Assembly (NCBI GenBank): GCA_035288845.1
Contig: DATDZB010000001.1
Coordinates: forward strand, 9,092-73,091
Length of the DNA: 64,000 bases
Source of the DNA: Candidatus Nanoarchaeia archaeon
GTDB lineage: Archaea; Nanobdellota; Nanobdellia; SCGC-AAA011-G17; GW2011-AR18
Direction of reading: 5' to 3'
A program made the translations under genes and the position numbers. Shown here piece by piece: positions 6,474-64,000 of the stretch; positions within the stretch are counted from its first letter, which is position 1, and each line of letters starts with the position of its first letter. The notes beneath the pieces were generated by a model. It had not been told where the DNA came from and did no database searches. It worked only from the letters and a program-made list of their open reading frames with translations.

Positions 6474-6474
6474 A

Positions 6475-7303: not shown

Positions 7304-7808
7304 AAAAGGAGACTTAGCATTTGGTTTATATTTTTGGCCTACATTCTCACTATTAATAATAACATTAATTATATTTGGAATAATATTTTTTATAGTGGGA
7401 ATTAAATCTGACAAAATAACAATAAACTCTCAAGTTTATGAAGATAGTTCGAAAATAATTACAGTCTCTAAATCACCAACAAATGTAATAATTAATGAAA
7501 AAAATTTATCCATCTCAGAATTAATATCTTTAGCACATAAAGATGAAAGTTATAAAGAAAAATTAAATACCGAATTTACTTATTTAATAAATAAAATTCC
7601 AAAACCAGAAAATAAAAAATCAAATTGGAATGCAAAGATAATTATTGATAATAATGAATTTTTAAAAATAGATCAATCTTCAGTTGGTTCAAGTAATTAT
7701 TTTAATCAAGTAATGATAATCCCTTTAGAAGATAAGAAGATAGCAAAATTAGAACTTTCTTTATCTTGTAGACTATGTAAATTACAAGATTTAGGGGAGT
7801 TTGTATAA
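7293..7808 (+). CDS. Pilin-like protein.
   Basis: MTNKKGDLAFGLYFWPTFSLLIITLIIFGIIFFIVG. Confidence 0.45.
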   Translation: MTNKKGDLAFGLYFWPTFSLLIITLIIFGIIFFIVGIKSDKITINSQVYEDSSKIITVSKSPTNVIINEKNLSISELISLAHKDESYKEKLNTEFTYLINKIPKPENKKSNWNAKIIIDNNEFLKIDQSSVGSSNYFNQVMIIPLEDKKIAKLELSLSCRLCKLQDLGEFV

Positions 7809-19052: not shown

Positions 19053-19910
19053 TTAAACAAAAAACAAAAAGAAATCACCAAATAAAATACTAACAATAAA
19101 ACCAATTAAAAAACCAGGTACAAAAGGTATTCCTTCTTTTACTAAAACAGTTTTAATTTTATTTTTCTTCAAAATTTCAATATCTTCTTTAGTCAAACCA
19201 ATATTTCTAATCTTACAAATTAATTTGTTTGCTTTAAAAACATCTTTTGCAAGCCAGTCTCCTTCAACTAATTTATTTACTTTTATAAATTTATACATTA
19301 AAGAATTTTCAATAATTTTAGTAAATTGAATTATAATTGAAGAAATTAAACAAATTAATATTACTAAAGAAACCATTTTAAAAATAAAACTATCAAATAT
19401 AGAATAACTAATTAAAATTAAAAGCAGTCCAAAAATAAATAAAATAATTAAAATTTTAAATGAAGTTTTACTAATATCTTTCTTTACTTTGCTATAATTT
19501 TTAACTCCTAAAAATATGCTGTAAACAATTCCATAAACAACACCAGCAACAAGTATATTTAATAGTAAAGTTCCTAAAAAAGGCAGACTATTTAGAGAAA
19601 ATTTAGATATCACTTGGTAATTTCCAAACACAACGCCCAAACCCATTAATAATTTACAATCTCCTCCACCCCATTGTTTAGTATAATACATTAAATTAGC
19701 AAATACAAAAAATATAGCAAAACCAATTATGCCATAAATTAAATAACTAAAATCTTTTTCAATAAAAGAATAAATTAATCTTGCCCCAAAACCAACAGCA
19801 ATAAAAGAATAACTAACCAAGTCAGGAACTTCTCTTTTTTTAATATCTGTAATACTGCATATTATTAAAACTATTAAAGCCACAATAACTAAAAAATACC
19901 AAAAAATCAT
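19053..19910 (-). CDS. Archaeal prepilin/preflagellin peptidase (A24 family, PibD/FlaK-like).
   Basis: It is a polytopic membrane protein. The first catalytic Asp context is ITDIKKREVPD. The second is WGGGDCKLLMGLG (the GGGDxK motif). Confidence 0.8.
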   Translation of the reverse strand: MIFWYFLVIVALIVLIICSITDIKKREVPDLVSYSFIAVGFGARLIYSFIEKDFSYLIYGIIGFAIFFVFANLMYYTKQWGGGDCKLLMGLGVVFGNYQVISKFSLNSLPFLGTLLLNILVAGVVYGIVYSIFLGVKNYSKVKKDISKTSFKILIILFIFGLLLILISYSIFDSFIFKMVSLVILICLISSIIIQFTKIIENSLMYKFIKVNKLVEGDWLAKDVFKANKLICKIRNIGLTKEDIEILKKNKIKTVLVKEGIPFVPGFLIGFIVSILFGDFFLFFV

Positions 19911-19994: not shown

Positions 19995-21194
19995 ATGCCT
20001 AGATCAAAAAAAGCTCAATCTGAAGGTGGAGCAGTAGCTGTAATTCTTATTATAATTGCTTTGTTTATGGTACTTTATTTATTGTTTATTTCTCCAGAAG
20101 AAAGGGAAAGAATTCTAGATTCAAATAACACAGGTAGTTCTATAGGTACATCTGGAAGATCTTCATTTTCAAGAATTGAATTAGTTGCAGAATCTCCTGG
20201 TTTGGTAACACCAACAAAAGAATTTGCAATTGTTCATCGGCTCCCTGGAGTCAATATTTTTCTTAAAGAGGAGCCAAGTTTTAAACCACTTTCATCTGAT
20301 TTAACTGTTTCAAGAACATTATTGTCTGAAAATTCTCCCACATTAAAATTTAATCTAGATCATTTAGAAGAAACTACAACAGCTAGTTTAATTTTCTCAG
20401 TAGAAGAATCAGAAGGAACTTTAGAATTAGAAATTAATGATAATATTTTTTACAGTAAACAAATACAAAAAAAAGGTGTAGAAATAGTAGAAATTCCTAA
20501 ATCTTCATTGATAGATAGAAATGAAATAAAATTTAGAGTTTCTTCTCCAGGAATAGCATTCTGGGCAACAAATAAATATCATCTAAAAGATATTAGTGTT
20601 AAACAAGAATATGTAAAAAGAAATAGAGAAGAAACAAGAACATTTACTATAACACCCCAAGAAAAATTAAACATGTTAAATACTAAATTAAAATATTCAC
20701 AAACATGCAACGATCCTTTACAAGACCAGCTTACAACTTTAGATATTTTAATTAATGATAAAAGATCACATACGGCAGAAGTAAGATGTGCTAATACAGA
20801 AGAAGAAATAGAAATAGATCCAGATTCATTAATTGCTGGATCAAATACTATTACTTTTAGATTGGAAAAAGGAGATTTTACTTTTAATCAATTAAAAATA
20901 GAAACAGAATCAAGAGAATCTGAAAGACCAACATATTTCTTCTCTTTAACAGACAGACAATTTGATGATATTCAAAGAGGAAGAAGAGGATTAAAATTAC
21001 AAATATTAATGGATAACAATCAAAGAGTTAAAAATGCTAGAATATTAATAAATAGTAATAATGTTCTAATGCAGGTAGAAAGAAATGATTTTGTTTTAGA
21101 CTTGAAAGATTATGTTCTAGAAGGAACAAACTTCATTAAATTAATTCCTGTAAATTCTTTCAATATTATAGGCTTTAAAGTAATTTTAGAATAA
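19995..21194 (+). CDS. Membrane-anchored or secreted hypothetical protein.
   Basis: The N-terminus is MPRSKKAQSEGGAVAVILIIIALFMVLYLLF, a possible KAQ class-III-like site. The rest is a predicted extracellular beta-rich region. Confidence 0.45.
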   Translation: MPRSKKAQSEGGAVAVILIIIALFMVLYLLFISPEERERILDSNNTGSSIGTSGRSSFSRIELVAESPGLVTPTKEFAIVHRLPGVNIFLKEEPSFKPLSSDLTVSRTLLSENSPTLKFNLDHLEETTTASLIFSVEESEGTLELEINDNIFYSKQIQKKGVEIVEIPKSSLIDRNEIKFRVSSPGIAFWATNKYHLKDISVKQEYVKRNREETRTFTITPQEKLNMLNTKLKYSQTCNDPLQDQLTTLDILINDKRSHTAEVRCANTEEEIEIDPDSLIAGSNTITFRLEKGDFTFNQLKIETESRESERPTYFFSLTDRQFDDIQRGRRGLKLQILMDNNQRVKNARILINSNNVLMQVERNDFVLDLKDYVLEGTNFIKLIPVNSFNIIGFKVILE

Positions 21195-21205
21195 AAAGGT
21201 GATAA

Positions 21206-22522
21206 ATGACTAGTGCAACTGCTGGATCAATTCCAGGAAATCCATTTCAAGAAGTATTTGGTCCAATAGGTGGTTGGCTAAAAAAAGCATTATTTACTTT
21301 AATAGTTGGTCTGCTTTGGGCAGCAGTATTTGCTTTTGTTGTAGGTGCAGGTGTCTTCTTATTTTATCAATTTAGATCTGGAAATGTTGAATCTACAGTA
21401 GAGCATGTAAATGTTGCTGGACAAGAAACAGTAGGAAATCCTCTTAAATTAGCAATAAAACAAAATGCTCCAGGACTTTACTACACTTTTGTTGAACCTG
21501 AAAGTCTTCAACCATATGCAATAGATTCAGTAGTACAAAATAATAAAAATAATGAGGAACTAGGTGTTAAAATAGTAGAATTTGAACCGCAAGTTTCTTT
21601 CTTCAGACCAAATTCAGAAATTAGTTTAAGAGGAAGAATAAAAGCAAGAGGTTTAGACCAGCCAACAAAAATAGAAGTTTATTGTCAATTAGAAGAAGAA
21701 CAAATGATACCAGCAGAACTTCTTGGTACAAATGTTATTGGACTTAACATAGGAACTATATTCAAAGATCAAACAACAGAATTTAGAGTTAATTGTAATT
21801 TCCCAGATGGAGTTTCAACTACAAAAGCAATAGAATCTAGAACAGCAAAATTAGTTGTAATTTATGAATTTTCTACAGTATCTTCTCAGCGTATTTGGGC
21901 ACTAAATAGAGAATCTCTACAAGACTTGCAAAGCAAAGGAATAGACCCATTTGTACAATATGACAAAAGAGATCCATTAAAAGATAAAGATAATAAAATA
22001 AGAGCTGAACAAACTCCAGGACCAATCAACTTAGGTTTACAAATTGATTTCCCGCAGCCAATTACTACTAATTCAAGATATGAACTGCTTGTACAAATTG
22101 CACCACAATCATATGGGGTATTACAAGAACTTAACTACTTGAAAATAAAAGTTCCTGCAGTTAAAGATCTAAATTTAGCTCTACAAGGAGGAGAAGCTTT
22201 AGGTTCAGGATCAAAATGCGATTTTACTTATGCAGGACAAACAGATGATGGTTACAAAGAGTATCAATTAGTAGATTCCAAATTACAAGAAACAAATAAA
22301 GTGTGTGATAAAGAATTACTAAGAGAATATGCATTCACAGAACAAGCATGTTTAGAATTTTTCAAACAACCATTATTCAAATGTAATTTTATTGCAACAA
22401 CTGTACCAGAAACTTTACTTTCAGATTTAATAAAAGCAGAAGCACTTTATTCAGTTAAAGTAGAAAAGAAACTTGTTATAGACATTAAAGGTCCACCTTC
22501 AAGTGCTGCAGGAGTAGCTTAG
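21206..22522 (+). CDS. Membrane-anchored hypothetical protein.
   Basis: The N-terminal TM region is LFTLIVGLLWAAVFAFVVGAGVFLFY. The large C-terminal domain contains Cys. Confidence 0.45.
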   Translation: MTSATAGSIPGNPFQEVFGPIGGWLKKALFTLIVGLLWAAVFAFVVGAGVFLFYQFRSGNVESTVEHVNVAGQETVGNPLKLAIKQNAPGLYYTFVEPESLQPYAIDSVVQNNKNNEELGVKIVEFEPQVSFFRPNSEISLRGRIKARGLDQPTKIEVYCQLEEEQMIPAELLGTNVIGLNIGTIFKDQTTEFRVNCNFPDGVSTTKAIESRTAKLVVIYEFSTVSSQRIWALNRESLQDLQSKGIDPFVQYDKRDPLKDKDNKIRAEQTPGPINLGLQIDFPQPITTNSRYELLVQIAPQSYGVLQELNYLKIKVPAVKDLNLALQGGEALGSGSKCDFTYAGQTDDGYKEYQLVDSKLQETNKVCDKELLREYAFTEQACLEFFKQPLFKCNFIATTVPETLLSDLIKAEALYSVKVEKKLVIDIKGPPSSAAGVA

Positions 22523-22530
22523 AATTAAAA

Positions 22531-23070
22531 ATGTGCTTTAGTAAAATTTCTACATTCTTTAAAAATTTAACAACAAATAAATTAGAATCTAAAAATAATA
22601 AAGAATTAGTAAATGAATTTATTAACTGTATAAAAAATTTCTACAAAGAAGTAGAAAAATTAGAACTTACTAGATATTTTATGAAATTAGAAAAGAAAGC
22701 AGTAAAAAAGAGAGTAGAATATGAATTATTTTTACTAGATAGGATTGAAGATATATTAGATGGGGACGAAGAAAGGAATGGGCCTTGGAGTTTTACGAAA
22801 GATGAAAAACATGAAATTAGTGAAGAATATCCAATTTTTAATATTTGTAACATGGCTCAGATTGAATTTCTAAGAGACTGGAAGCAAGAAGAAGGTGAAA
22901 GCGTGTTTCATCCATTTGCTGATGTAGAAATAAAAGCTTCTGAAGTAAGAAAATTAGATGAGGAAACTCAAGAAAAATTAATTAAATATAAAAGACTTGG
23001 TAGAGAAATAGCAACAGAACTATACAAAAGACTTGATCTTGAAGCTAGAAGAAGACTTAAAAAAATTTAA
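22531..23070 (+). CDS. Hypothetical cytoplasmic protein.
   Basis: It is a 179-aa charged, helical ORF. Confidence 0.4.
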   Translation: MCFSKISTFFKNLTTNKLESKNNKELVNEFINCIKNFYKEVEKLELTRYFMKLEKKAVKKRVEYELFLLDRIEDILDGDEERNGPWSFTKDEKHEISEEYPIFNICNMAQIEFLRDWKQEEGESVFHPFADVEIKASEVRKLDEETQEKLIKYKRLGREIATELYKRLDLEARRRLKKI

Positions 23071-23118
23071 ATCAAGAACATAGAAATCTTTTTAACTACG
23101 AATTTATCTTAATTTACT

Positions 23119-24057
23119 ATGAAATTAAAGTGGTGTTATCTAGTTATTGTTTTATTATTAATATTAACAGCTTGTTCTTCAATTTCAGATAGAATTCCTT
23201 TTTTAGGTGGAAAACAAGCACCAGTTGGAGGTTCAGGATTAACTTTAACTTTTGTAAATGTTCCAGCAAATAATGAATTAATTTATGAAGGAGCAGAATT
23301 CGATGTTGAAGTAGCTTTAGAAAATAATATCGTAAATGAACAAGGATTAACTGGCAGAATATGTTTACAAGATGATTTAACTGATAACTTTGGCGGAATT
23401 ACTTCAAATCTATGTCAAAATTTTAATTTACCTTCAGCTACAAAATCTTCTAATGGTAAAGTTACATCAGTACAAGAAAATTTCCTTTTCAAACCACAGC
23501 CCTATAAGGGATTACAAAAAGAACTAGAGCTTTCAAATAGTATAAATGCAGTTGTTGCATATGAACTAGAATCTATTTCTGGTTCTGAAGTGTGTATAAA
23601 AAGAAGAGAAGCAGAAGTAGCAAATTGTCTTAACCAACAAAAATTAGAGACAAGACAATCAGATTTACCTCTAAAAATACAAAGTATTGAAGCAAAAGTT
23701 TCATCAAAAGATCAATCAGAATATGTAGTTATATTAGATATTAGTTTAGAAAAAGCAACAAAAGGACAACTTTTAACTCCAGGAAGTATAACTTCTGGTA
23801 GTATAGAAGCACCAACAGCAGAAGTGAATTTTGAAATAAGCATTGATGGAAAACCTATAAAATGTAATACTGCTTCTGCAGGCAAAGTAACATTTAGATC
23901 TAATGAAAACGAAAAACTTATTAAATGCACAGGACCTATAACATTAAATCAAGATTCAATCATGGCACAAATAACTATGAAAATGAGTTATGGTTTCAAG
24001 CAGACTTTAAATGGTCCAAAAATTAGATTAATAAAAAATGAGGAATTGATAACATGA
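23119..24057 (+). CDS. Putative lipoprotein or secreted surface protein.
   Basis: There is a signal peptide with a lipobox-like LTAC|SS. The C-terminal region is beta-rich with Cys pairs. Confidence 0.5.
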   Translation: MKLKWCYLVIVLLLILTACSSISDRIPFLGGKQAPVGGSGLTLTFVNVPANNELIYEGAEFDVEVALENNIVNEQGLTGRICLQDDLTDNFGGITSNLCQNFNLPSATKSSNGKVTSVQENFLFKPQPYKGLQKELELSNSINAVVAYELESISGSEVCIKRREAEVANCLNQQKLETRQSDLPLKIQSIEAKVSSKDQSEYVVILDISLEKATKGQLLTPGSITSGSIEAPTAEVNFEISIDGKPIKCNTASAGKVTFRSNENEKLIKCTGPITLNQDSIMAQITMKMSYGFKQTLNGPKIRLIKNEELIT

Positions 24058-25007
24058 AAAAAATTACAATTGCATTCTTAGTTTTGATGTGTTTACTCTT
24101 AGTTCTATCTGGTTGTAAGGGAAATAAAACACCAAAAAACACAACTGGTTTTATTGGAGGAACAGAAGGAATATCTTCTCAAATAACTATTGAATCAACT
24201 TCAGGAAATAATAATGTTTTTGATAATGGTGTAGATCCTTTCTATATAGATGTTACTTTAGAAAATAAAGGTGAAGACGAGGCAGCAGAAGGAGAAGTTC
24301 TAGTAACTTTAGATAATATTAATTTTAATGCTTTCCAAATACAAGATCCTACAAAAAGAAATGATATATCTCTTTCTGGTTTAAGAAAAGAAGGCGGAAA
24401 AACAACAGATGCAGCACAAACAATAGTTAGATTTAATGCAAATTACAAACCAGATGAAGTAGCAGATAGAACAGTTTCATTATCAGTAAATTCTTGTTAT
24501 AAATATCAAACAATATCTAGAGTAAAAGATCTTTGTTTAAGAAAAAAAATAACAAGTCCAGGAACAACAGATACATGTAAAGTAGATGAAGCAAAAATAG
24601 CTGAAAATTCAGGTGCTCCATTCAGAATTAAAACATTTACTGAAAGTCCTGCTGGAGAAAATAAAGTTAGAATATTTATTGAAGCAATGAATGAAGGAAA
24701 AGGAACTATTTACAGCAAAGATTATTTATCTCAAGGAAAATGCATTGATAGTGAAGAAAATAAAAACAAGATCTATGCAAAAATACAATTAACAGAAGTT
24801 ACAAATAGTGCCAGCATAATTACTTGTTCAGGATTAGATAAAAATGAAGGAAATTTAAATGTTATACAAAATAAAGTTCAATTATCTTGTATGATTGATA
24901 CTTCAAGTTTACAAGATTCAACATTTGAAACACCATTACAAGTAACATTTGATTATGTTTACAAAGATGGTGCTACAACAACATTAACAATTAAAAGTTC
25001 TATTTAA
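24054..25007 (+). CDS. Putative lipoprotein or secreted surface protein.
   Basis: There is a signal peptide with a lipobox-like LSGC|KG. The mature part is Cys-containing and beta-rich. Its start overlaps the preceding gene's stop. Confidence 0.5.
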   Translation: MKKITIAFLVLMCLLLVLSGCKGNKTPKNTTGFIGGTEGISSQITIESTSGNNNVFDNGVDPFYIDVTLENKGEDEAAEGEVLVTLDNINFNAFQIQDPTKRNDISLSGLRKEGGKTTDAAQTIVRFNANYKPDEVADRTVSLSVNSCYKYQTISRVKDLCLRKKITSPGTTDTCKVDEAKIAENSGAPFRIKTFTESPAGENKVRIFIEAMNEGKGTIYSKDYLSQGKCIDSEENKNKIYAKIQLTEVTNSASIITCSGLDKNEGNLNVIQNKVQLSCMIDTSSLQDSTFETPLQVTFDYVYKDGATTTLTIKSSI

Positions 25008-44538: not shown

Positions 44539-44576
44539 AAAGATATAGTTTTAAACTTTTTCTTTACCATTTTGTT

Positions 44577-44870
44577 ATGGAATTATCAGATGTATTAGTA
44601 GAGTGGCTTGTAGGAAATTTAACAGCAGGTGCTATTATGGCAAGTCGAAATTATGATAGAGCAAAAGCATGTTATACTGAATTACAAACTTCAAGCATAC
44701 CAGAGCCTAATCATTTAAATTTTCTAGGATATCAATTAAAAAGAAGTTTACTTAGAACAGTTTTAGTTAGTCCTATAATTAGTGAAACAAAAATTGATGA
44801 AATAATTGGAAAAAATCCTTTAGAAAAATATGTTAGGGCTTATAATTTAGCTACAAGAAGAGAAAATTAA
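44577..44870 (+). CDS. Hypothetical protein at the edge of the atypical island.
   Basis: It is a 97-aa ORF. Confidence 0.35.
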   Translation: MELSDVLVEWLVGNLTAGAIMASRNYDRAKACYTELQTSSIPEPNHLNFLGYQLKRSLLRTVLVSPIISETKIDEIIGKNPLEKYVRAYNLATRREN

Positions 44871-44871
44871 T

Positions 44872-46374
44872 TTATTGACGAGTAAGTTTTTCAGTTCTAA
44901 GATCAATTTGTTCAGAAACTATCCCTCTAGCAAAAAGCTGAGTGATAGTACTAGAAGGATAAGCCTCTCCTCTAAGAACACCATCTTTAAAAGTAGAACC
45001 AGGCTTATAAATTAATACAACTAACGCATATGGTTGACTGCCTTTTGTTCCTTCAAAAAGATGTGCACTATTTCCTACCCATCCAAGTCTATTTTTTGTT
45101 TCTACAAGATCTCCAGGATTAGGACGGAAATCACTTAGATTTCCATAAACTCCTATTGTTCTATCTTGGTGCTCAACTACTACAGTTTTACCAAAATTCC
45201 TTTCACCAAGAACAAGAGGTCCAGAGTGTAATACTTTTCCATTATCAATTGGATAAACATCAGTTCCAGTAGGTGCATGATATATTACCATATCATTATA
45301 ACTTGATCTTAATCCATCAATAGCAATAGCTTTTTCCAAGCCACTCTCATTAACATTTAATCTTCTTCCATCTCTAGAAGCTGCTGTTTTTAGAGGTGAA
45401 TTATATTTTAATAAAAAAGGTATATCCCTTACATCTACTAAAATTTGTCCATCTCTAATAAATGCTTCACTTAAATTTATTGTTTTTCCATCTAGATTCA
45501 AAATTTTTCCAGGTAAAGGCTTTGTTGTTTCTTTGTCAAGTTCATTCCATAAATATGCTGCAACTCCACTTGCTAAGACTGCGGCAGCTCCCAAAACTCC
45601 AGCAAGCCGAGCCATTCTATTTGAAGAATGAATAGCAGTATAATTTTCTCTAAAATCAGTTCCATCAAATCCAGGAGTAGGAGTTGAATCAACTGCAACT
45701 TTTGCAGATGTTGTTTGTCGAGTTTGAGAAGTTTGAAGCGCAGAAGTCTGAGTTGAATAAGCTGGTACTTGAGCATGAGTATATGCCGGGTTTAAAGCTG
45801 AAGGCGCAATTAATGTAGAAGGAACTCTAGCAGATGATTTAGAATCTCTTACTCTTCCAGCAGAAATTTCAACAGATTCTTCAAATCTAATATCCATTGT
45901 ACCTACTCTCCCACCTAAAGGTACATTAGCAGCAACCACTCTAGATACCCCACTTTCTTCATTAGGAACTTCAACAAAAAGTTCTTGAGTATCTAATTCA
46001 ACATCATCACCATCTGAAACAGAAGGAGGGAATTGGTTTTTGTCTATTACACTTCCAATAGATCTGTCTGCTTGTTCTAAACTTTCATCTATTTCTCTTA
46101 CTCCTTCTTGCAACATATCTCCCAACTCTGAACTTCTTGCTGATCCTCTAGCAACAGCAGCTAGTTGTTCTTCTAATTGAGCTCGTTTTAATTTTTCTTC
46201 ATGAGGTGACAGTCCTTTTCCTTTTTCAGCATAAATCACTCTCATTTCTTCGTGAGCTCTAGTAACTACAGAAACTTCTTCTCCAGGTTTTTGACCTTCC
46301 AAACCTGCTATTAATTTTTCAGCAACCTGACCACCTTTATTTTTTTTAGAATCGCCCATTTCATCATCACTCAT
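44872..46374 (-). CDS. Bitopic membrane protein with a C-terminal LytM/M23-peptidase-like domain (partly degenerate).
   Basis: There is a disordered acidic N-terminal region and a single TM segment (MARLAGVLGAAAVLASGVAAYLW). The C-terminus has YHAPTGTDVYPIDNGKVLHSG...FGKTVVVEHQDRTIGVYGNLSDF..PGDLVETKNRLGWVGNS. The composition is Gly/Ala/Arg/Pro-rich, unlike the rest of the window. Confidence 0.55.
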   Translation of the reverse strand: MSDDEMGDSKKNKGGQVAEKLIAGLEGQKPGEEVSVVTRAHEEMRVIYAEKGKGLSPHEEKLKRAQLEEQLAAVARGSARSSELGDMLQEGVREIDESLEQADRSIGSVIDKNQFPPSVSDGDDVELDTQELFVEVPNEESGVSRVVAANVPLGGRVGTMDIRFEESVEISAGRVRDSKSSARVPSTLIAPSALNPAYTHAQVPAYSTQTSALQTSQTRQTTSAKVAVDSTPTPGFDGTDFRENYTAIHSSNRMARLAGVLGAAAVLASGVAAYLWNELDKETTKPLPGKILNLDGKTINLSEAFIRDGQILVDVRDIPFLLKYNSPLKTAASRDGRRLNVNESGLEKAIAIDGLRSSYNDMVIYHAPTGTDVYPIDNGKVLHSGPLVLGERNFGKTVVVEHQDRTIGVYGNLSDFRPNPGDLVETKNRLGWVGNSAHLFEGTKGSQPYALVVLIYKPGSTFKDGVLRGEAYPSSTITQLFARGIVSEQIDLRTEKLTRQ

Positions 46375-46480
46375 AAAACAATGAAAAATAAATTTCTCTT
46401 ATAAGGATTTATAATCTCTAATATATAAGATTAAGTAATAGAAATCTCATCTACTTAAAAGTTGTAAAATTCAGAAAAAT

Positions 46481-48445
46481 TTATTCTCTAACTTTTTTTC
46501 TAGATCTACTATCAATAAGGTTGTAAGCATTTCCACCAGGCATTATTGATTCAAATGAATTACTAGGAACCTTAGGTCCAGATAATTTAACTCTATTAGA
46601 TTGACTATCTGTTGTAAAAGTAGATCCTTTCCTATAAAGTACTAAAGAAAGGTAAGCAGGACTGCCATCAACAACATCTGCTCCAGTAGTTCCAACCTCA
46701 CCTACTAATTGTCCTCTTTCAATTTTATCTCCTTTAGATACATGTGTTCTTCCTAAATTTCCATATAAAGCAAAATTTCCATCATCTAATTCTGCTATAA
46801 CTGTAGTTCCGTAAGATACTTCATCTTGATAATATCCTGTATGAATAATTTTACCTCTAGATATTGCCCTAATTTGTGTTCCAGCATCAGCAACATAAAT
46901 GCTTCCAGCAGGTCTAGGTCCTTTTTTAAATTTCTTTGCCTTTAAAGTATTTAATCCATGAACACTAGTAAAGTTTATATTTGATCCACCAACCATAACC
47001 CATCCTGTAATTGGAAGATCATATCTTAAAAAGTCTGAAATTTGTTCTGGATCTACTAAAATTTTACCTGAAAAGTCTGCTAAAAAGCTTCCATCCAACG
47101 TATAAAAACCAGGTCCTGTATTATCAATTCTAGGAATTTTAATATATGTTTCTATTCCATTTAATTCTTGGCGAATATCTGCAAGTTCTTTATTTGCAGC
47201 AGCAAGTTTTTTTCTTTCAGATTCATTAGGCATAAATGCTAAAGCTGCAAATGCAGTACCAGCAACTAATCCAGCTAATCCGCCTGTGAAAAGAAACATA
47301 TTTCTCCAAGTATTATTATTTTCTTTTATTCTTGAGTTTAATCTTTCAACGCCAGCTAATCTAGAAGTTTCTATAGAGCCATAAAGTGTATCATGCTCAA
47401 TATCTTTTTGTTTGCTAAAATAACCAGCTATTTTACCAGGTATCTCTAACACACCTTCTAATAATTTTTCAGCCTTCGTATAAAGAGTTGGTCTTATTCC
47501 AGAAACTTCTGAATCTTCTTTTGGTTTTGCTTTAACTTTCTCTGAAACTTCTTCCAACTTAACTTCTGGTTTTTTCATTCCAGTTCTTTTTGAAATTGGA
47601 GTTCCTCCAATAGAAGGTGAAACTGTACCACCATTAAGAACTGTTTCTATAGCTACACCACTTGATTCTGAATTTCCTGCAACATAAGCTATATGTTGAC
47701 TCATATCTGGCAAACTTGGATGTCCTTCAAGTTTAGCATCTTCTAATTGATCGTTAGTGATTTCTAAAGTTGGATCTTTTCTAAGTATTGTAGGAGGAAT
47801 TCTTGGTTGCCTTTGACCTTCATCATTATGAAATGCTGTTGCTTCATCTGCTAATTTTTCTAATAAGCCTTTTCCTTCTTGATCAGCAATAATTCTTTTT
47901 GGATCTATTCTAGTAGAAGGTTTTTCAGGTTTAGCTATAACAGCATCTCCAACTCTGCCAACCCTATGTAATCTTTGACCTAAATATCTTCCTTCAAGTT
48001 CTCTATCAGCTGGCTTATGAATTGAAGCAGCAACATCTGTTTCTTGATCATACCTTTGCATACTTGGAAGAAGTGGAGGAGGTTGATAAGCAGGAACCTT
48101 TTCTTTGCTTGAAGGTGTATCTCTTTTCAATAATGTCGGAACAGCACCATCAGTTCTAGGTTCATAAAATGGTGCTCTATCTTCAGTATGAGCTTGATTT
48201 GGAATAGCTTGAGCAAGCCCATCAGTTTGAAGAGAATCACTTGGCAAAAATTCTCTTTCTGCACGTTCTGTTAAATTTTTCCCTCTTAATGTGCTTAGGC
48301 TCTCTCTATTTGCAGGAACCTTTCTCTCTCTTACAGCATGAGTAACTTCTTTACTTTCTGGATTCATTGGTCTTATAGGTCTTTTAGTAGCCATGAAAAA
48401 AATAGTAGGAATAACTTTATAAGATTTACTATGGCCAAGTAGCAA
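46481..48445 (-). CDS. Paralogous bitopic membrane protein with a C-terminal degenerate LytM/M23-like domain.
   Basis: A roughly 390-aa disordered N-terminal region is followed by a TM segment (FLFTGGLAGLVAGTAFAALAF) and a coiled coil. The C-terminal domain aligns to the M23 consensus but lacks the HxxxD and HxH ligands (SIYVADAGTQIRAISRGKII...YGTTVIAELDDGNFALYGNLGRTHVSKGDKIERGQLVGEVGTTG...YLSLVLY). It shares the ILVDxxxIxxFLxYxLP segment with the upstream paralog. Confidence 0.55.
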   Translation of the reverse strand: MLLGHSKSYKVIPTIFFMATKRPIRPMNPESKEVTHAVRERKVPANRESLSTLRGKNLTERAEREFLPSDSLQTDGLAQAIPNQAHTEDRAPFYEPRTDGAVPTLLKRDTPSSKEKVPAYQPPPLLPSMQRYDQETDVAASIHKPADRELEGRYLGQRLHRVGRVGDAVIAKPEKPSTRIDPKRIIADQEGKGLLEKLADEATAFHNDEGQRQPRIPPTILRKDPTLEITNDQLEDAKLEGHPSLPDMSQHIAYVAGNSESSGVAIETVLNGGTVSPSIGGTPISKRTGMKKPEVKLEEVSEKVKAKPKEDSEVSGIRPTLYTKAEKLLEGVLEIPGKIAGYFSKQKDIEHDTLYGSIETSRLAGVERLNSRIKENNNTWRNMFLFTGGLAGLVAGTAFAALAFMPNESERKKLAAANKELADIRQELNGIETYIKIPRIDNTGPGFYTLDGSFLADFSGKILVDPEQISDFLRYDLPITGWVMVGGSNINFTSVHGLNTLKAKKFKKGPRPAGSIYVADAGTQIRAISRGKIIHTGYYQDEVSYGTTVIAELDDGNFALYGNLGRTHVSKGDKIERGQLVGEVGTTGADVVDGSPAYLSLVLYRKGSTFTTDSQSNRVKLSGPKVPSNSFESIMPGGNAYNLIDSRSRKKVRE

Positions 48446-48492
48446 TAAAGTATATGCCTTATATATAAATACTAATCATCAAATATCAAAAA

Positions 48493-49372: not shown

Positions 49373-49756
49373 TTGGATAATATGGGTAGATCAGCATATG
49401 GGGCTAGTTATGAAAGTGTAGAAACAATTCTAAATGGATTTAATCCTCCTGGAAAATTTTATAATAAATTAATGCTTGCAGGTAAAAATTATGCAGATGC
49501 TAGATTAATGTTTGAAATTGCAAGAGATAAAGAATATGGATGGTTTGAGCAAGTTCAAGAAGAATTAGATCAACGTTATACTAATTTTTTAACACAAATT
49601 AATTTAATAAATGATAGATTAAAAAGTAAAGGAAGTACTTATCAAATCCCAACAAATCCATTAAATGTTCATAGATTACTAGAAGGAATAAAAGGAAGAA
49701 TAATACATTCTAGAAGAGCCTTACCTTCTTCAAAAAGTTTAGAAAATGATTTATAA
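49373..49756 (+). CDS. Hypothetical protein, first of two tandem paralogs.
   Basis: It is 127 aa. The C-terminus LEGIKGRIIHSRRA parallels VADIRGHHTIHRKA of the next ORF. Confidence 0.4.
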   Translation: MDNMGRSAYGASYESVETILNGFNPPGKFYNKLMLAGKNYADARLMFEIARDKEYGWFEQVQEELDQRYTNFLTQINLINDRLKSKGSTYQIPTNPLNVHRLLEGIKGRIIHSRRALPSSKSLENDL

Positions 49757-49822: not shown

Positions 49823-50149
49823 ATGGAATATAAAACTTTTTTAGATGGGTTCAAACAAGTTGATCCACAATTTGAATTATACGGGTCTTTTGTTTTATCT
49901 GCTGTTGCTTATTATGAAGCTAGAGTTGCATCTTCAACAGCAAGTGTTGCTGGAGCACATGATTCTATAGCTTTAAATGCTGAAACAGAAAGCTGCTTAA
50001 GAGATCTAAAAATAAGAACTACAGCTATAAATGAAAAATTAGCTGCAAAAGAATTACCAGCAATCCCTTCAAGTGGAGAAGCTTTAGACGATTTAGTTGC
50101 AGATATTAGAGGCCACCATACTATACATAGAAAAGCTTCAAACGCTTAA
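49823..50149 (+). CDS. Hypothetical protein, the paralog of the preceding gene.
   Basis: It is 108 aa and shares the Y..L.LA...Y.EAR and C-terminal I+G..IH.+A motifs. Confidence 0.4.
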   Translation: MEYKTFLDGFKQVDPQFELYGSFVLSAVAYYEARVASSTASVAGAHDSIALNAETESCLRDLKIRTTAINEKLAAKELPAIPSSGEALDDLVADIRGHHTIHRKASNA

Positions 50150-54414: not shown

Positions 54415-54687
54415 ATGACTATTGAAACTACGAAAATGTCTAGTAAAGGACAGATTGTAATTCCTCAAGATATGAGAGAGGAGTTAGGATTAGAAGAAGG
54501 AACATTATTTGTAGTAATAGGTACTAAAGATACAATTTTTCTTAAAAAATTAGAAATGCCTTCAAAAGAGAAGCTAATTAAAGATTTTCAAGAGATTGCG
54601 AAAGAAGGAAGGAAAAGAGCTGAAAAGTTAGGAATAAAATCTGAAAAAGATATTAACGAAATTATTCATAAATCAAGAAAAAAATGA
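54415..54687 (+). CDS. AbrB/SpoVT-family antitoxin.
   Basis: MSSKGQIVIPQDMREELGLEEGTLFVV is a swapped-hairpin motif. It is 90 aa and overlaps the downstream PIN gene by 4 nt. Confidence 0.6.
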   Translation: MTIETTKMSSKGQIVIPQDMREELGLEEGTLFVVIGTKDTIFLKKLEMPSKEKLIKDFQEIAKEGRKRAEKLGIKSEKDINEIIHKSRKK

Positions 54688-55085
54688 AAATTGTTTTTGA
54701 CACAAACATTCTGATCTCAGCAACACTTTGGGAAGGAAGCGTTGCGCAAAAAGTGTTGTTTAAACTTATCCAGGAAGATACTATAATTTACACTTCCAAG
54801 GAAATTCTTGAAGAATATAAAAAAGTTCTCAAAAGAGATTTCAAATACACAGAACAAGAAGTAGAAACAATTTTAGAAAAGATCTTACTCTTTGTTCAAA
54901 TTATAGAACCAAGTGAAAAATTAGATATAATAAAAGCAGATCCAGAAGATAATAAGATATTAGAATGCGCAGTTGCATCAAAAGCAGAATACATTTTAAG
55001 TTATGATAAAAAACACTTACTAATTCTTAAAGAGTTTCAAGGTATACTTATTTTAACACCAGAACAATTCCTAAAAATCACCTAG
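54684..55085 (+). CDS. PIN-domain toxin (VapC-like).
   Basis: The N-terminus MKIVFDTNILISA carries the conserved Asp. It is 133 aa. Confidence 0.65.
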   Translation: MKIVFDTNILISATLWEGSVAQKVLFKLIQEDTIIYTSKEILEEYKKVLKRDFKYTEQEVETILEKILLFVQIIEPSEKLDIIKADPEDNKILECAVASKAEYILSYDKKHLLILKEFQGILILTPEQFLKIT

Positions 55086-59072: not shown

Positions 59073-61109
59073 ATGGAAAAAAGGGGGCAGGCAGCAGTTT
59101 TTCTAATAATAGGAATAATCTTATTAATCGTAGTAATAAGTGTCATAGTTATTAAACAAGATTTCTTAAAAAATCTATTTTCAAGTATCTCAACAGAAAG
59201 ATTAACTGTTCCTCAGCAAGTAAAACCAGTACAAACTTTTCTAGATTCTTGTGTTCAAGAAATAACAAAAGAAGGAATTAATATTATAGCATTTCAAGGT
59301 GGCAGATTAAATTTAGAAGAAGATAATATTCCAACAACACCATTTACTCCGTTGCAAACTTCTCTAGAAATAATTCCAGATTCAGAAATTAAAACAAGTG
59401 TTTGGTTTAGATCAAGAGGAAATGGAATACAAGAATTAAATATTCCAACAGAACAAGAAATAGAAAATTCAATATCCCAATATGTAGAAGAAAATTTTGC
59501 TAATTGTGTTCAAAACTTAACAGAATTTGATAGACAAGGTTATTCTACAAGTGCTGATGGAATTCCAGAAGTAACAACAGATATCTCATCTAATAATGTA
59601 TTAACAACAGTTGATTTCCCAGTAAATATTCAAATTTTATCTACAAATTTTACATTATCAAAACATCAAGGTTCAGTAGATTCTAATCTAGGTAAACTTT
59701 ACACAATGGCTAAAGAAATAATGGAAAAAGAAAATGAAGACTTTTTCTTAGAAAATAAAACAATTGATACTTTGGTTGCTTATGATCCAGAAATTCCTTT
59801 TTCAGGAACAGATTTTTCATGTACTCAAGACATATGGGTTAAATCAGATGTAGAAAGAAAATTAAAAAATGTTTTATTTGAAAATGTAGCAGCTATGCGT
59901 ATAAAAGGAACAAATTACGATTTAACAAATGACAATCAAAAATATTTAGTATTTGATGCTTTAGATACAACAGACAGCGAAGTTACAGCAAACTTAATGT
60001 ATATTCCAAGCTGGCCAACTTCAATAGAAATTTCACCTTCAGAAGGAAATATATTAAAAAGTGATTTAATTACAAACAAAGCAGGTGGAGCAGTTTCAGC
60101 TTTATTATCAACATTTTTCTGTCTAAATAATCATCAATTTGTTTATGACTTAAAATATCCTGTATTAATTAGTTTAACATCATCTGATGGTTTAACATTC
60201 CAATTCGCAACACAAGTAATACTAGACAACAATAAACCAAGATCAAACACAGTAATATCTACAACACTTCCAGATATAGAATCTCCAATATGTAATTACA
60301 GACAAAAAGATGTAACTATATTTACAGGATTTATAGATGAAAATAATCAGCTAGCTCCATTAGAAGATGTAACTTTAAGCTACAAATGTTTCCCTGCAAC
60401 TTGCCAATTAGGAAATACAATATTAAATTCAGATGGAGAACCAACTTTAACAACTAAAGTTCCTTTATGTGTTAATGGAATAATAGAAGGAAGAAAAGAA
60501 GGCTATAAACAAATATTGAAAACATATTACTCTTCAAACAATGAAAATTCTCCAGAAATAGCTCTAGTTCAATTAGAAAAGGTTTACAATAAAAAAATAA
60601 ATTTATTCATAACAGAAAAAGAAACAGGAGAAACAAGAGAACCATTTGGAACAGAAACAATTACTTTCCAATTTATACACCAAGGAACAAATTATCAAAA
60701 TTCATATATTTATCCAAATGAAAATAATACTTTAGATTTGATACCTGGAAAATATATAGTAAGTGCTTATTTAATGAGAAATAGTAGCACTTATAAAATA
60801 CAAATTCCAAAAGAAGAATTAACTACTTGTGTAGAAACAGAAAGTCTAGGTTTATTTGCTTTGTTCCAAAAAAATCAAGTATGTAAAACTACAGAAACAG
60901 AAGCATTTGAATCTAATAGTGTATTAACTGGAGGATTTACAGATTTGGAATATGAATTTACTAGAAAAGATTTATCATCAAATGAAGCACTAAATTTATT
61001 TATATTATCTTCAAAAATACCAGGCAGCTTTAGTGATTTACAAAAAATACAAATAGAAATCGAAACAAATAAAGATCACTCATTATTTAAGGAACCAATA
61101 GTAGGATGA
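59073..61109 (+). CDS. Large class III signal peptide (pilin-like) surface protein or adhesin.
   Basis: MEKRGQAAVFLIIGIILLIVVISVIVI carries a KRGQ|A motif. The extracellular region is 650 aa with several Cys pairs. Confidence 0.6.
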   Translation: MEKRGQAAVFLIIGIILLIVVISVIVIKQDFLKNLFSSISTERLTVPQQVKPVQTFLDSCVQEITKEGINIIAFQGGRLNLEEDNIPTTPFTPLQTSLEIIPDSEIKTSVWFRSRGNGIQELNIPTEQEIENSISQYVEENFANCVQNLTEFDRQGYSTSADGIPEVTTDISSNNVLTTVDFPVNIQILSTNFTLSKHQGSVDSNLGKLYTMAKEIMEKENEDFFLENKTIDTLVAYDPEIPFSGTDFSCTQDIWVKSDVERKLKNVLFENVAAMRIKGTNYDLTNDNQKYLVFDALDTTDSEVTANLMYIPSWPTSIEISPSEGNILKSDLITNKAGGAVSALLSTFFCLNNHQFVYDLKYPVLISLTSSDGLTFQFATQVILDNNKPRSNTVISTTLPDIESPICNYRQKDVTIFTGFIDENNQLAPLEDVTLSYKCFPATCQLGNTILNSDGEPTLTTKVPLCVNGIIEGRKEGYKQILKTYYSSNNENSPEIALVQLEKVYNKKINLFITEKETGETREPFGTETITFQFIHQGTNYQNSYIYPNENNTLDLIPGKYIVSAYLMRNSSTYKIQIPKEELTTCVETESLGLFALFQKNQVCKTTETEAFESNSVLTGGFTDLEYEFTRKDLSSNEALNLFILSSKIPGSFSDLQKIQIEIETNKDHSLFKEPIVG

Positions 61110-64000
61110 AAAAAAATAGGTTGATAGCAATATTTTGTATGTTATTAATAGTTAGTATGCCTATAGTTTTTTCTGCAGATGTAACAAACAATCCTTCTCC
61201 TTTAGAAAATCAACAAAGTTCTTACTTAAGTAATAGTTTTTCAAATTCAGTTTACAATGATCCATATCAAAATTATGTAAGAAGATCAACAGGTTATGGT
61301 TCATATGGACCAGAACAATATTTAGGTGAAGCAATTGTTATTAATGTTGCAGATTATGAACCAAAATTAGTTAGAGCTTCTTTATTAGAACAGCAAGATG
61401 TTCCAGTATTTATTTATTTAAAAGGTTATACATTACAAAGTTTTATTTCACAAACTGGAAATATAATTTCTGGAGTAGAACAAGGTACAACAGGAACTTC
61501 TAAAGGTTCTTCAATAAGTTCATTAAGTGCATTAGATCCATTTGCTATTTCAGAAATTCCACCAATAGATTACATTCAAATCCTACCAAATTATAACACA
61601 TCTGAAAAAGATTACATTAGATCAATAAATTATATAAAGCCTAGAAAAGATAAACAATCTCTTTCAAATTTAGGTTATTTAGTAGTTTACTTAAGAAAAA
61701 TAGATAATGAAAATGCAACTCCAAGTAATAACACAATTAATATTAATTTAAATGCAAAAATATATTTAAATTTAGAACAAAATTCTTTATTTGGAGTATC
61801 TGAACAAAGTTTATCTTTGAAACAATTAGAAAATAAATCTGAATTTTTACAAAATAAAGATAAATATTCATTTTATTCAGGAAAAGGCTACTTAAGAGCA
61901 ACAAGAGTATCTCCTACTTCTGTTACATTAGAAGTTTACAATAAAGATTTAACTCCAATTTCTTTAGCTTCAGCATCTAATGCAGCTGGTCTAGAACAAA
62001 GAACATCTGTAACTTTAGCAAAAGGTGAAACATCCTCTCCTATTTCATTTGGTTATTCAGGAAATCCAATAAATGATTTATTTAGAGTAAGACTAGACGA
62101 AGTTACAGCTCCAGGAGATAAAGCAGAAATACAATATGAAATAAATGGAAGGAAAATAACTAGAAAAGTTCCTGTAAATGCAAGATTACATTCAGCTTCA
62201 AATTGGATATTAAAAGAAGTAAAAAAAATTGAAAGCAATAAGGTTGTTACACAAGTAACAAATCCAAATGTTAACAAAGTATTTGGTTCAGAAATTAGTG
62301 TTGATGAAGTAGCTTCAGAATTTAAACTTAAAACTCAGCAAAGAAATGAATTATTTGATCTAGCTTCAATAGGAAGAAATCTATATGTTGAAAAACATCA
62401 AATAAGAATAGAAAACCAAGTTACATTTGAAAAAAAAGTATTAGAAACTAAACTTGTTACTTTAGATGGAAATAAACCTTTTTCACAAGCAGAAGTTATA
62501 GGACCAGATTCAGTTAGAATATTAGAAAGAAGATATTGTGAAGAAGTTTCAGATGTTGAAAGAGATGATGTTGCGTGTCAAGCAATATTTAGATATCAAA
62601 AATTAATACAAGAATTCCCAAATAGCGAAGAAACTTTAAAAGCAAAAAGTGATTTAGCAGATATTTATGCAGACTTTTTAATAGTTTACAAAGCTTGTCA
62701 ATTAAATGTTCAAAATAGAGTAATAGATCCAGATAGCTGTAAAATTTATCAAAAAGATATGATTGATTTAGCAGCTTACTATTATTATCAAATAGGAGAT
62801 AATGAAAAGATAAGCAACTTATATGGTACAATTGCTGGCGAAGAATATCTTCAAGATGAAGGAGTACCAATTAAATTATTTGGAGTTTCTACAGCAAAAG
62901 ACGAACAGCCAAAATTCAAATTATCACTTTATGATGGAATTAAAGAAACAAATCAAATTACATATCAAAATGGAGATGTAATAAAATCTATTGGTATTAA
63001 TGGTAAAATTAAATATGAAAAACAAGGAGATTATTACTGGGTTGTAGATCAAGTAAATCCTTCTAGTATAAGCTTAGTTTTACGTAGATTTACAGATCAA
63101 TTTAACAAAGAAATTAATTTAGATAATATTTTAGATATAAATACTTACACCTTATTAAGCAAATTAGGAATTAAATCAATTCCAACAGGAGAAAGAAGAG
63201 ACTTAATTCTAAATAGAAGAACAACATTAAATACTGCATTTGCACAAAAAGATGCACAAGGAAGAATAATAGGTCCAGCAGAAGTTGCAAATGTAGAAGT
63301 AAAAGAAATTGAATCTAAATCAGAAGCATATATAACAATAGTTCCAGGTGCAGGAAGAGCATACTCAACTTCAAGTTTCTCAGTCCACATTCCAGTAGAT
63401 CCAAGACCATTTAAATTAACACCAGACCAACTAGAATCTCAAATTAAAGGTACTAAAGATTTAATTAAAATATTAGATGAAATAATAACTAAATTAGATG
63501 AATATATTTCTACATTAAAGAAATTATGTCTAGGTGCATTTGCAGTTTTAACAATTAAAAATTCATTAAGCGGAACAAGAAATATAGCAAGAAAACAAGT
63601 TTCAGAATATTACAAAGCAAGTTGTCAAAAAGAAATTGCAGAAGGAAAAACATCTGAACATCCTGCATTTACAAGAATGGAAGAATGTTTAAATCATTAC
63701 GGAGATAAAATAAAACAATCAACAGATTCAACACAAAAACATATCTCTGATATAAATGATAAAATAAAAGGTAAAACAGCAGATGAACTAACTAGTGTTG
63801 CTCTAGCATCTTCAGATGAAGAAAAGATATGTGGTTCATTTAATGAATTCGTAAAAGCAAGTCCAAATGCAAACCAGCAAACATTAATTACAAATTATAG
63901 AGATTGTTTACTAAATGCAAAAATACAAAATGATGCATCTTTAGCACAAGGGTTTAAAGATTATTCACAGCAAAAATCAAATGAAATTGGAATAAAAACT
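61106..64000 (+). CDS. Very large secreted protein, 3' partial at the window end (>960 aa). It is not in the ORF track.
   Basis: The frame from the ATG at 61106 stays open to the window end. It has a Sec-type signal peptide (MKKNRLIAIFCMLLIVSMPIVFSADV). Its start overlaps the upstream gene's stop (ATGA). The three listed minus-strand ORFs at 62-63.4 kb lie antisense within it. Confidence 0.55.
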   Translation, partial: MKKNRLIAIFCMLLIVSMPIVFSADVTNNPSPLENQQSSYLSNSFSNSVYNDPYQNYVRRSTGYGSYGPEQYLGEAIVINVADYEPKLVRASLLEQQDVPVFIYLKGYTLQSFISQTGNIISGVEQGTTGTSKGSSISSLSALDPFAISEIPPIDYIQILPNYNTSEKDYIRSINYIKPRKDKQSLSNLGYLVVYLRKIDNENATPSNNTININLNAKIYLNLEQNSLFGVSEQSLSLKQLENKSEFLQNKDKYSFYSGKGYLRATRVSPTSVTLEVYNKDLTPISLASASNAAGLEQRTSVTLAKGETSSPISFGYSGNPINDLFRVRLDEVTAPGDKAEIQYEINGRKITRKVPVNARLHSASNWILKEVKKIESNKVVTQVTNPNVNKVFGSEISVDEVASEFKLKTQQRNELFDLASIGRNLYVEKHQIRIENQVTFEKKVLETKLVTLDGNKPFSQAEVIGPDSVRILERRYCEEVSDVERDDVACQAIFRYQKLIQEFPNSEETLKAKSDLADIYADFLIVYKACQLNVQNRVIDPDSCKIYQKDMIDLAAYYYYQIGDNEKISNLYGTIAGEEYLQDEGVPIKLFGVSTAKDEQPKFKLSLYDGIKETNQITYQNGDVIKSIGINGKIKYEKQGDYYWVVDQVNPSSISLVLRRFTDQFNKEINLDNILDINTYTLLSKLGIKSIPTGERRDLILNRRTTLNTAFAQKDAQGRIIGPAEVANVEVKEIESKSEAYITIVPGAGRAYSTSSFSVHIPVDPRPFKLTPDQLESQIKGTKDLIKILDEIITKLDEYISTLKKLCLGAFAVLTIKNSLSGTRNIARKQVSEYYKASCQKEIAEGKTSEHPAFTRMEECLNHYGDKIKQSTDSTQKHISDINDKIKGKTADELTSVALASSDEEKICGSFNEFVKASPNANQQTLITNYRDCLLNAKIQNDASLAQGFKDYSQQKSNEIGIKT

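Follow-up and report, generated by a model that had tools for sequence, protein, structure and literature searches.

Two tandem genes in the genome of a Candidatus Nanoarchaeia archaeon of the Woesearchaeota type (DPANN) are predicted to encode membrane-anchored proteins whose ectodomains have the LytM (peptidase M23) fold and have lost all of its catalytic residues. The genes lie on the minus strand within positions 44577–48445 of the stretch of DNA that was analysed (64,000 nucleotides, hereafter the window) and carry the working names A500 and B654, after products of 500 and 654 amino acids (aa). To judge from their sequences, both copies are catalytically dead and unable to cut peptidoglycan. 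They are tentatively regarded, at a probability of about 0.45, as tandem paralogous surface LytM factors that would bind or regulate peptidoglycan hydrolases aimed at bacteria.

Fold, catalytic residues and architecture

The C-terminal domains of both proteins match the Pfam M23 family PF01551 above its gathering cut-off of 28.7 bits, A500 with 41.4 bits (E-value 1.6e-10) and B654 with 52.2 bits (E-value 7.1e-14), as the initial annotation of this region had proposed, and structural models confirmed the fold. A500 was modelled at full length with AlphaFold, and the B654 ectodomain (residues 405–654) was modelled in the same way with an alignment of 31 sequences. The M23/LytM core of A500 occupies residues 360–470 (44965–45297, minus strand), with a predicted local distance difference test score (pLDDT) of 89–97 except for one block at 70. 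That of B654 spans about residues 514–624 (46574–46906, minus strand), with pLDDT mostly 82–98. In a sequence search of the PDB the best match was the LytM domain of EnvC. Foldseek comparison of the models with the PDB, at a probability of 1.00, placed the EnvC LytM domain first for B654 (4bh5; E-value 3e-8, TM-score 0.77), followed by DipM (7qrl), and the DipM LytM domain first for A500 (7qrl_C; E-value 2.7e-7); TM-scores with DipM 7qrl were 0.70–0.72. The Csd1–Csd2 heterodimer was also among the top structural matches. Active M23 enzymes (EnpA, ShyA, lysostaphin and LytM) ranked below, B654 superimposing on lysostaphin and LytM with a root-mean-square deviation of 1.6–2.4 Å over about 100 residues. 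With a degenerate M23 fold and with EnvC and DipM as the top structural matches, the likeness to the non-catalytic LytM domains of EnvC and NlpD, which had been noted earlier, is borne out.

Five positions make up the catalytic and zinc-binding site, namely the histidine and aspartate of the HxxxD motif, a middle catalytic histidine and both histidines of the HxH motif. Against H,D,H,H,H, which is present in 63 of 149 aligned relatives, A500 has N,I,N,A,V and B654 has P,I,N,Y,S. It is this replacement of all five conserved positions that leads us to regard both copies as dead. The initial annotation had ascribed the loss of zinc ligands to the 654-aa copy only; the loss is real there but extends to A500, and structure prediction of the C-termini, which had been suggested as a check, placed the M23 fold with no zinc ligand surviving in either copy. 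Neither protein has the HxxxD, HxH and catalytic histidine that characterize active M23 metallopeptidases, and both have the M23 fold minus catalytic residues that characterizes LytM factors. The aspartate-to-isoleucine and histidine-to-asparagine substitutions are common to both copies despite their low overall identity, which suggests that the ancestor was inactive before duplication and that the fold has been kept through a long divergence since.

A500 and B654 share 30% identity over about 210 C-terminal residues (E-value 4e-17), and the paralogy, correctly recognized at the outset, is confined to this part of the proteins. A hydropathy scan gave one hydrophobic helix per protein, in agreement with the single transmembrane (TM) helix expected of each. 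It covers residues 254–276 in A500 (45547–45615, minus strand; helix 247–279 in the AlphaFold model) and residues 383–406 in B654 (47228–47299, minus strand). We infer an N-in, C-out topology for both proteins, since the ectodomain is homologous to N-terminally anchored proteins and B654 has a modest positive-inside bias, with flanking charges of +3 on the N side and +1 on the C side of its helix.

A500 consists of a helical N-terminal region, a disordered linker, the TM helix and the degenerate LytM ectodomain. Its N-terminal helical region, putatively cytoplasmic, covers residues 13–110 (46045–46338, minus strand) and was modelled, without alignment depth, as four helices with pLDDT 60–75. 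Beyond residue 110 the model has a hairpin (129–152) and then about 100 residues with pLDDT near 30, so that the long disordered N-terminal region described initially holds for these residues of A500 but not for its helices at 13–110. B654 has an orphan N-terminal region of about 365–380 aa, the TM helix, a juxtamembrane helix and the degenerate LytM ectodomain. In its model a confident 23-residue juxtamembrane helix (residues 408–430; 47156–47224, minus strand; model residues 4–26, pLDDT > 90) is followed by a less confident extension of about 80 residues and the M23 core. This short helix is all that was found of the coiled-coil segment that had been proposed for both proteins, and A500 has none at that place.

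The N-terminal regions of A500 and B654 have no relatives in Pfam, NCBIfam or PDB. They are predicted to be cytoplasmic, and are large, fast-evolving and partly disordered. Two short motifs are common to these otherwise unrelated regions, in an order that differs between the proteins: RVIYAEKGKG and RIIADQEGKG (46214–46242 and 47868–47896), and AEKLIAGL and AEKLLEGV (46300–46323 and 47450–47473). They could be short linear binding motifs, or could be due to chance.

At the level of the genes, a stretch of about 3.9 kb with two large minus-strand products had been described. Both products are there, A500 at 44872–46374 (NCBI HLC58294.1) and B654 at 46481–48445 (HLC58295.1), each automatically named 'M23 family metallopeptidase' by NCBI in a 'Candidatus Nanoarchaeia archaeon' metagenome-assembled genome (MAG); the range also holds a third open reading frame (ORF), and the longer start of B654 is doubtful. 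The 654-aa product is the maximal ORF from a TTG codon that falls inside a TATA-like region, and an exact look-up of this product found no matching contig. B654 probably starts at the ATG at 48394 instead, giving 637 aa, because this is the NCBI call for HLC58295.1 and a TATA-like box read from the sequence, TCTTATAAAG (48415–48424, minus strand), lies 21–30 nucleotides (nt) upstream of it. Another such box, CCTTATAAGAG (46395–46405, minus strand), lies 21–31 nt upstream of the A500 ATG, and since a TATA-like box precedes each ATG, each gene would have its own promoter. The third ORF, of 97 aa, lies on the plus strand at 44577–44870, convergent with A500 and with stop codons 1 nt apart. It is annotated as a gene in seven public contigs; it gave no family match in Pfam, NCBIfam, PHROG/viral or defence (PADLOC) searches.

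Setting, composition and origin of the genes

The window is archaeal by content, with genes for RadA, CDP-archaeol synthase, RPA, aIF2-alpha and GINS, as well as S13e/S15, S3Ae, L44e, SRP54 and a Bud32/RIO-type kinase. Its guanine-plus-cytosine (GC) content is 27%. Among one-per-species genomes, the closest SRP54 proteins come from Woesearchaeota MAGs (74–85% identity), AR18 included. In nine Woesearchaeota loci the gap from SRP54 to Bud32 is 5–20 nt, and S15 and a DHH-CID protein follow. In the window the two genes are 3954 nt apart (44539–48492), the segment between them containing only the 97-aa ORF, A500 and B654, and the pair was found in 0 of 80 related loci. The genes are an insertion relative to the conserved SRP54–Bud32 synteny.

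The same slot holds other genes elsewhere, namely orphan small ORFs, an ABC/FtsX-like/CARDB set, CTP synthase or RtcB, and none of the other Woesearchaeota has a relative of the 97-aa ORF there. Because the genes in different relatives are unrelated, the slot is a rearrangement-prone junction and not a dedicated island, and its interpretation as a specialized 'wall-attack island' was rejected on the same occupants. In one relative (L013 4138–7035, minus strand) the slot is filled by genes for an ABC ATPase, an FtsX-like permease and a CARDB-domain protein, an example of how it acquires different, unrelated surface-related genes from lineage to lineage. Two small ORFs rich in glycine, alanine, arginine and proline (G/A/R/P) lie between Bud32 and S15 on the plus strand (49373–49756 and 49823–50149). 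Weak positional homologues of these occur just upstream of S15 in the related loci L003 and L006, so that they are regarded as native lineage-specific genes, and an extension of the inserted segment to include them was rejected.

Marks of mobility were looked for in the segment and its flanks. No integrase is among the three ORFs of the segment, the best flanking direct repeat is a 16-nt chance match inside coding sequence, and no tRNA target was found near the insertion, the sole tRNA of the window being at 55658; the att sites or integrase genes for which a search had been recommended were therefore not found. A defence system was rejected as the identity of the segment for lack of a PADLOC match. 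A virus had also been named as a possible source. No relative was found in IMG/VR, the M23 proteins of Bacillus phages gave core-level matches only (31–33% identity), and the matches in BFVD and PHROG were no better than bacterial ones, which leaves nothing to favour a viral source. Five further public assemblies, which come from several samples, show the same arrangement with every base identical, and a sixth has one mismatch and an unaligned gap; this recurrence excludes mis-assembly.

The region stands out in composition, as had been noticed. The GC content of 44577–48445 is 0.340, compared with 0.265 ± 0.013 (maximum 0.293) in 525 non-overlapping windows of equal size (z = 5.9). The two genes have GC contents of 0.360 and 0.342, compared with 0.266 ± 0.035 for 65 other ORFs, and their products are indeed G/A/R/P-rich, with a fraction of 0.28–0.29 in both against 0.16 ± 0.05 in other ORFs. 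Both the N-terminal regions and the ectodomains are rich in these residues, the ectodomains resembling their catalytically intact relatives (0.26–0.27). The GC excess lies entirely in codon positions 1 and 2 (GC1 0.49–0.54, GC2 0.43). The GC3 values of 0.106 and 0.104 are native (0.129 ± 0.032), as is the synonymous codon score trained on the 65 other ORFs (z = 0.08 and 0.84). The comparison with the background that the initial annotation had called for thus came out distinct in GC but indistinguishable in codon use, and the reading of this composition as a mark of foreign DNA was not upheld. Since the GC excess lies outside the silent sites, the composition reflects the kind of protein and not a recent arrival, and there is no sign of recent transfer. 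An old transfer with ameliorated silent sites and selection on amino-acid content fit it alike and cannot be separated by it. A clear GC anomaly can stem wholly from amino-acid composition and is by itself no indicator of recent transfer.

An exhaustive HMMER search over 1.84 billion representative proteins underlies all comparisons with relatives. Below 1e-30 it returned query proteins only, including a 460-aa variant of A500, and word-indexed homologue searches returned the query itself or nothing. The variant (P0002, from SRR3989344) is 40 residues shorter in the ectodomain extension. The deletion falls within 45290–45470 (A500 residues ~294–345) and has its breakpoints in 'DG..LN' segments that resemble each other, where there are also three weak direct repeats of 28 nt (45304, 45358 and 45439); the variant may reflect either a true deletion in a strain or an error of assembly.

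The whole module of about 200 aa could be aligned in two other proteins only, P0032 and P0053 (26–28% identity). These differ from the pair in having the TM helix at the extreme N-terminus and in keeping H,D,H,H,H. All four have the M23 core together with an ILVDxxxIxxFLxYxSP extension, a G(A/S)TF motif that follows the HxH strand and a tail of the form I(D/K/N)xRxx(K/R). The neighbours of P0032 (MraY, FtsW, MurG and ribosomal proteins L27 and L9) indicate that it comes from a wall-building bacterium. When only the core is compared, the scores of P0032 and P0053 are equalled by those of several other bacterial M23 domains. It is plausible that the ectodomain derives from a bacterial anchored endopeptidase of the P0032/P0053 type. 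The horizontal acquisition proposed earlier is accordingly retained in part: the intact anchored relatives and the insertion make a bacterial origin plausible, but a recent transfer judged by composition, and a virus, were given up.

Other M23 proteins occur in close Woesearchaeota relatives of the archaeon. A 347-aa protein with a Tat-like SRRGFL signal and intact HxxxD, middle histidine and HxH is encoded directly upstream of SRP54 at L006 6854–7897 (plus strand), and a similar one at about 15.7–16.8 kb of L061 (minus strand). Both are closer to bacterial M23 proteins than to the window pair. Descent of the pair from the L006 protein was rejected, the similarity being at E ~1e-3 and the GxTF motif being absent. 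The statement that an M23 domain is unexpected in an archaeon was overstated, given this intact protein in a relative and the homologues reported in Nanoarchaeota (PMC12352652).

Proposed role and competing explanations

Peptidoglycan hydrolases are encoded about 13 kb downstream of the pair. The first gene of this cluster (59073–61109, plus strand) encodes a protein of 678 aa whose N-terminus is pilin-like. Next comes the 5' part of a gene for a 2093-aa signal-peptide protein (61106–64000, plus strand), which stays open for 964 codons to the end of the window. Beyond that point the cluster was traced through an identical protein (L088 12034–21926). The 2093-aa gene, complete at L088 12034–18315, encodes a C-terminal SLT lytic transglycosylase domain (residues 1892–2033, E-value 2e-12) in which the ES, GLMQ and AYNGG motifs are present, and the LytM factors might have this protein as a partner or target. 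The third gene encodes a 936-aa protein with a C-terminal Amidase_2 domain (E-value 1.7e-19), whose first zinc histidine aligns with that of a solved amidase, and the fourth a 254-aa protein with six TM helices.

In the proposed mechanism both members of the pair would be bitopic, with the N-terminal region inside and a degenerate LytM ectodomain of about 200 aa outside. The ligand of the degenerate groove might be a peptide of peptidoglycan, the wall hydrolases that the organism itself secretes, or both; the candidate hydrolases would be the 2093-aa SLT protein and the 936-aa Amidase_2 protein. The LytM factors could thereby tether or tune wall degradation where the archaeal surface meets a bacterial partner or prey. 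A binding role is proposed because the proteins, as far as their residues tell, cannot be peptidases and the dead LytM domains studied work by binding, and a surface LytM factor is favoured because the organism encodes SLT and amidase proteins and shows signs of a contact-dependent lifestyle. That ORFs of 500 and 637–654 codons have stayed open in a genome of 27% GC supports function. A role at a host cell wall, as put forward in the initial annotation, is supported by the SLT and Amidase_2 giants, by co-residence only.

Degenerate M23 folds are known to serve as protein hubs (PMC9662197), and the degenerate LytM domains studied act mainly via protein partners (PMC9662197, PMC10336132). EnvC and NlpD relieve the autoinhibition of amidases (PMC9662197), and several autolysins bind to the LytM groove of DipM, which stimulates a lytic transglycosylase, SdpA, and an amidase, AmiC (PMC10336132). 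EnvC, NlpD, DipM and ActS, like A500 and B654, have the M23/LytM fold minus HxxxD and HxH, and act outside the cytoplasmic membrane; both types of enzyme stimulated by DipM are encoded near the pair. Unlike bacterial LytM factors, the pair has an archaeal host, no murein genes were seen in the window, and the TM anchor carries an orphan N-terminal region of 250–380 aa. Unlike EnvC, it lacks a long coiled coil and a link to FtsX, and it scores 26.7 and 13.8 bits with the EnvC NCBIfam model PRK11637 (cut-off 270). Unlike NlpD and DipM, it has no lipobox or LysM domain (no LysM Pfam match at E <= 1), and it reaches at most 18.8 bits with the DipM NCBIfam models (cut-offs 740–900). The amidase near the pair is of the Amidase_2 and not the Amidase_3 family.

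PrgK, of the Enterococcus pCF10 type IV secretion system, has an intracellular, poorly structured N-domain of about 250 aa, a TM helix at 254–274 and an extracellular LytM domain without HxxxD and HxH that lowers the activity of its own SLT-type domain, and all of its extracellular domains bind peptidoglycan in vitro (PMC11323569). A500 resembles it in its N-domain, its TM helix at 254–276 and its degenerate LytM domain, with the orientation of the window proteins being a predicted one. PrgK carries SLT-type and CHAP domains on its own chain, whereas the pair has PF01551 only and the SLT and amidase domains of the archaeon are found on the separate giant proteins about 13 kb away. PrgK also belongs to a conjugation system, whereas the neighbours of the pair are SRP54, Bud32 and S15, and no type IV secretion genes were seen.

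Archaea carry peptidoglycan hydrolases and can kill bacteria, and such hydrolases, M23 included, are prominent in Nanoarchaeota (PMC12352652). A survey limited to proteins joining a catalytic domain to a wall-binding domain reported that Woesearchaeales have LysM+SLT proteins and that four Nanoarchaeia genomes encode M23 domains (PMC12352652). Woldo/Danwoldo and the LysM+SLT proteins of Woesearchaeales are, like the pair, wall-targeting domains in archaea (PMC12352652). Proteins of the Woldo/Danwoldo type are secreted, catalytically intact and fused to wall-binding domains, whereas the pair is membrane-anchored, dead by prediction and without such a domain, and it falls outside the definition of modular archaeal peptidoglycan hydrolases on both counts (PMC12352652).

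Several observations weigh against A500 and B654 being regulators of the hydrolases. The pair and the cluster lie about 13 kb apart on opposite strands, with ribosomal and housekeeping genes between them, and are linked by co-residence only. The enzymes activated by known LytM factors are of the Amidase_3 and not the Amidase_2 family. Many relatives that lack the pair in the regions compared keep the 678-aa protein in synteny, together with the N-terminal and central parts of the giant protein; these regions end before its C-terminal SLT domain. Because the cluster is conserved in relatives lacking it, the pair is at most accessory to the cluster. Other partners may be encoded elsewhere in the genome. 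The charge bias across the TM helices is weak overall, with A500 having 0 on both flanks. Finally, the pair was found in one species-level lineage among the 1.84 billion representative proteins, and all other copies are identical or nearly so, leaving no diversity for a ratio of non-synonymous to synonymous substitutions (dN/dS).

A more far-reaching form of the regulator idea, which we consider unlikely, is that the bacterial LytM-factor logic was taken over for an interaction between domains of life: surface-anchored dead LytM domains would switch on or localize hydrolases at bacterial contact, with the cytoplasmic regions coupling this to processes within the archaeon, and the hydrolases would be the organism's own giant SLT and amidase proteins or conceivably the autolysins of the bacterium. 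If so, the archaeon would possess a regulated means of breaking through bacterial walls. Alternatively, the proteins could be pure adhesins, whose dead LytM domains attach to stem peptides or cross-bridges in the peptidoglycan of a bacterial host and so keep the small archaeon on the host surface, without regulating any enzyme. The M23 groove is a peptide-binding site, the ectodomains are membrane-anchored and not secreted, the type IV pilin-like and peptidoglycan-lytic clusters of the window suggest a contact-dependent lifestyle, and the dead LytM domain is among the PrgK domains that bind peptidoglycan in vitro (PMC11323569). This explanation is nevertheless somewhat unlikely, as a Pfam scan gave no wall-binding domain (LysM, SH3 or PG_binding), no host is known, and protein partners are the main targets of the degenerate LytM domains studied so far (PMC9662197, PMC10336132).

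A zipper between proteins that involves no peptidoglycan has its model in sporulation of Bacillus. There SpoIIQ, with a membrane anchor and a degenerate LytM ectodomain, binds a protein, SpoIIIAH, across a cell–cell interface. Ectodomains of the A500/B654 kind would then attach to a surface protein, either the archaeon's own or one of an archaeal host, machinery inside the cell would be recruited by the cytoplasmic regions, and the paralogues may heterodimerize like Csd1–Csd2. The TM helix joined to a degenerate LytM domain, the tandem paralogues, the Csd1–Csd2 match and the long orphan N-termini with their two short shared motifs all fit such a zipper. We regard it as unlikely, however, since the pair reaches only 11.8 bits with the SpoIIQ NCBIfam model (cut-off 250), no partner gene was recognized, the only neighbour being the orphan 97-aa ORF, and the peptidoglycan-lytic genes nearby make a wall-related role more economical. 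SpoIIQ also has a short cytoplasmic stub, whereas the pair has long N-terminal regions, and a SpoIIIAH-like partner was not found locally, no genome-wide search having been made. Decay of an acquired bacterial M23 endopeptidase gene into functionless relics would account for the loss of every catalytic residue, the restriction to one lineage, the rearrangement-prone slot with unrelated genes in each relative and the metagenome variant without 40 ectodomain residues. It is quite improbable, given that the long ORFs stay open at such a low GC content, that the fold is predicted at pLDDT above 90 despite the divergence, that the two shared inactivating substitutions place inactivation before duplication, and that codon use is fully native with a TATA-like box for each gene. 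Active peptidases with an unconventional catalytic site would agree with the M23 metallopeptidase label given by both Pfam and NCBI, but are very improbable: in both copies the residues at the five positions cannot bind zinc in the usual geometry, and the Pfam alignments end just within both motifs (profile positions 7–76 and 8–77 of 96). No more credible are recent transfer of the segment as an island, integration of a virus or mis-assembly with a bacterial fragment. The GC excess and the insertion relative to synteny would suit these, but they are already contradicted by the native GC3 and synonymous codon use and by the recurrence of the same arrangement in assemblies from several samples; nor did the searches give an integrase, a flanking repeat beyond chance, a tRNA target or a viral relative.

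The fold, its degenerate state, the LytM-factor idea and the presence of M23 domains in Nanoarchaeia are already known. As far as the searchable literature shows, in which nothing joining 'LytM' with 'DPANN' was found, three features of the surface LytM factors proposed here are new: the occurrence in a DPANN archaeon of a LytM domain that is catalytically dead, an anchored layout of the PrgK type whose orphan cytoplasmic regions are large, and a tandem duplicate of it in a genome that also encodes giant SLT and amidase proteins. Little is known of how Woesearchaeota-type DPANN archaea interact with other cells. Here a dead anchored pair occurs together with giant SLT and Amidase_2 proteins and with a cluster of type IV pilin-like genes, which suggests that the regulatory or tethering layer that bacteria use over autolysins exists in some archaea as well. 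The reach of this is limited because the pair was found in a single species-level lineage.

Other genes of the window

At 631–8633 (plus strand) lie nine consecutive ORFs, each beginning with a KKG or KRGQG motif and then a hydrophobic helix, like archaeal type IV pilins, one pilin-like ORF bearing a Laminin_G_3 lectin-like domain. Just off the window, at L089 2781–6623, is a gene for a 1280-aa, intein-containing PilB/T2SSE-like ATPase. A prepilin peptidase (Peptidase_A24) is encoded at 19053–19910 (minus strand) and is followed by a five-ORF operon at 19995–25007 (plus strand), several products of which have an N-terminal hydrophobic helix or a lipoprotein-like signal. Pfam gave only a weak BcsB match for this operon, which may encode another cell-surface structure. 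For about 54415–55085 (plus strand), the gene table of L082, an identical contig, lists a pair made up of a MazE-like antitoxin and a PIN-domain toxin.

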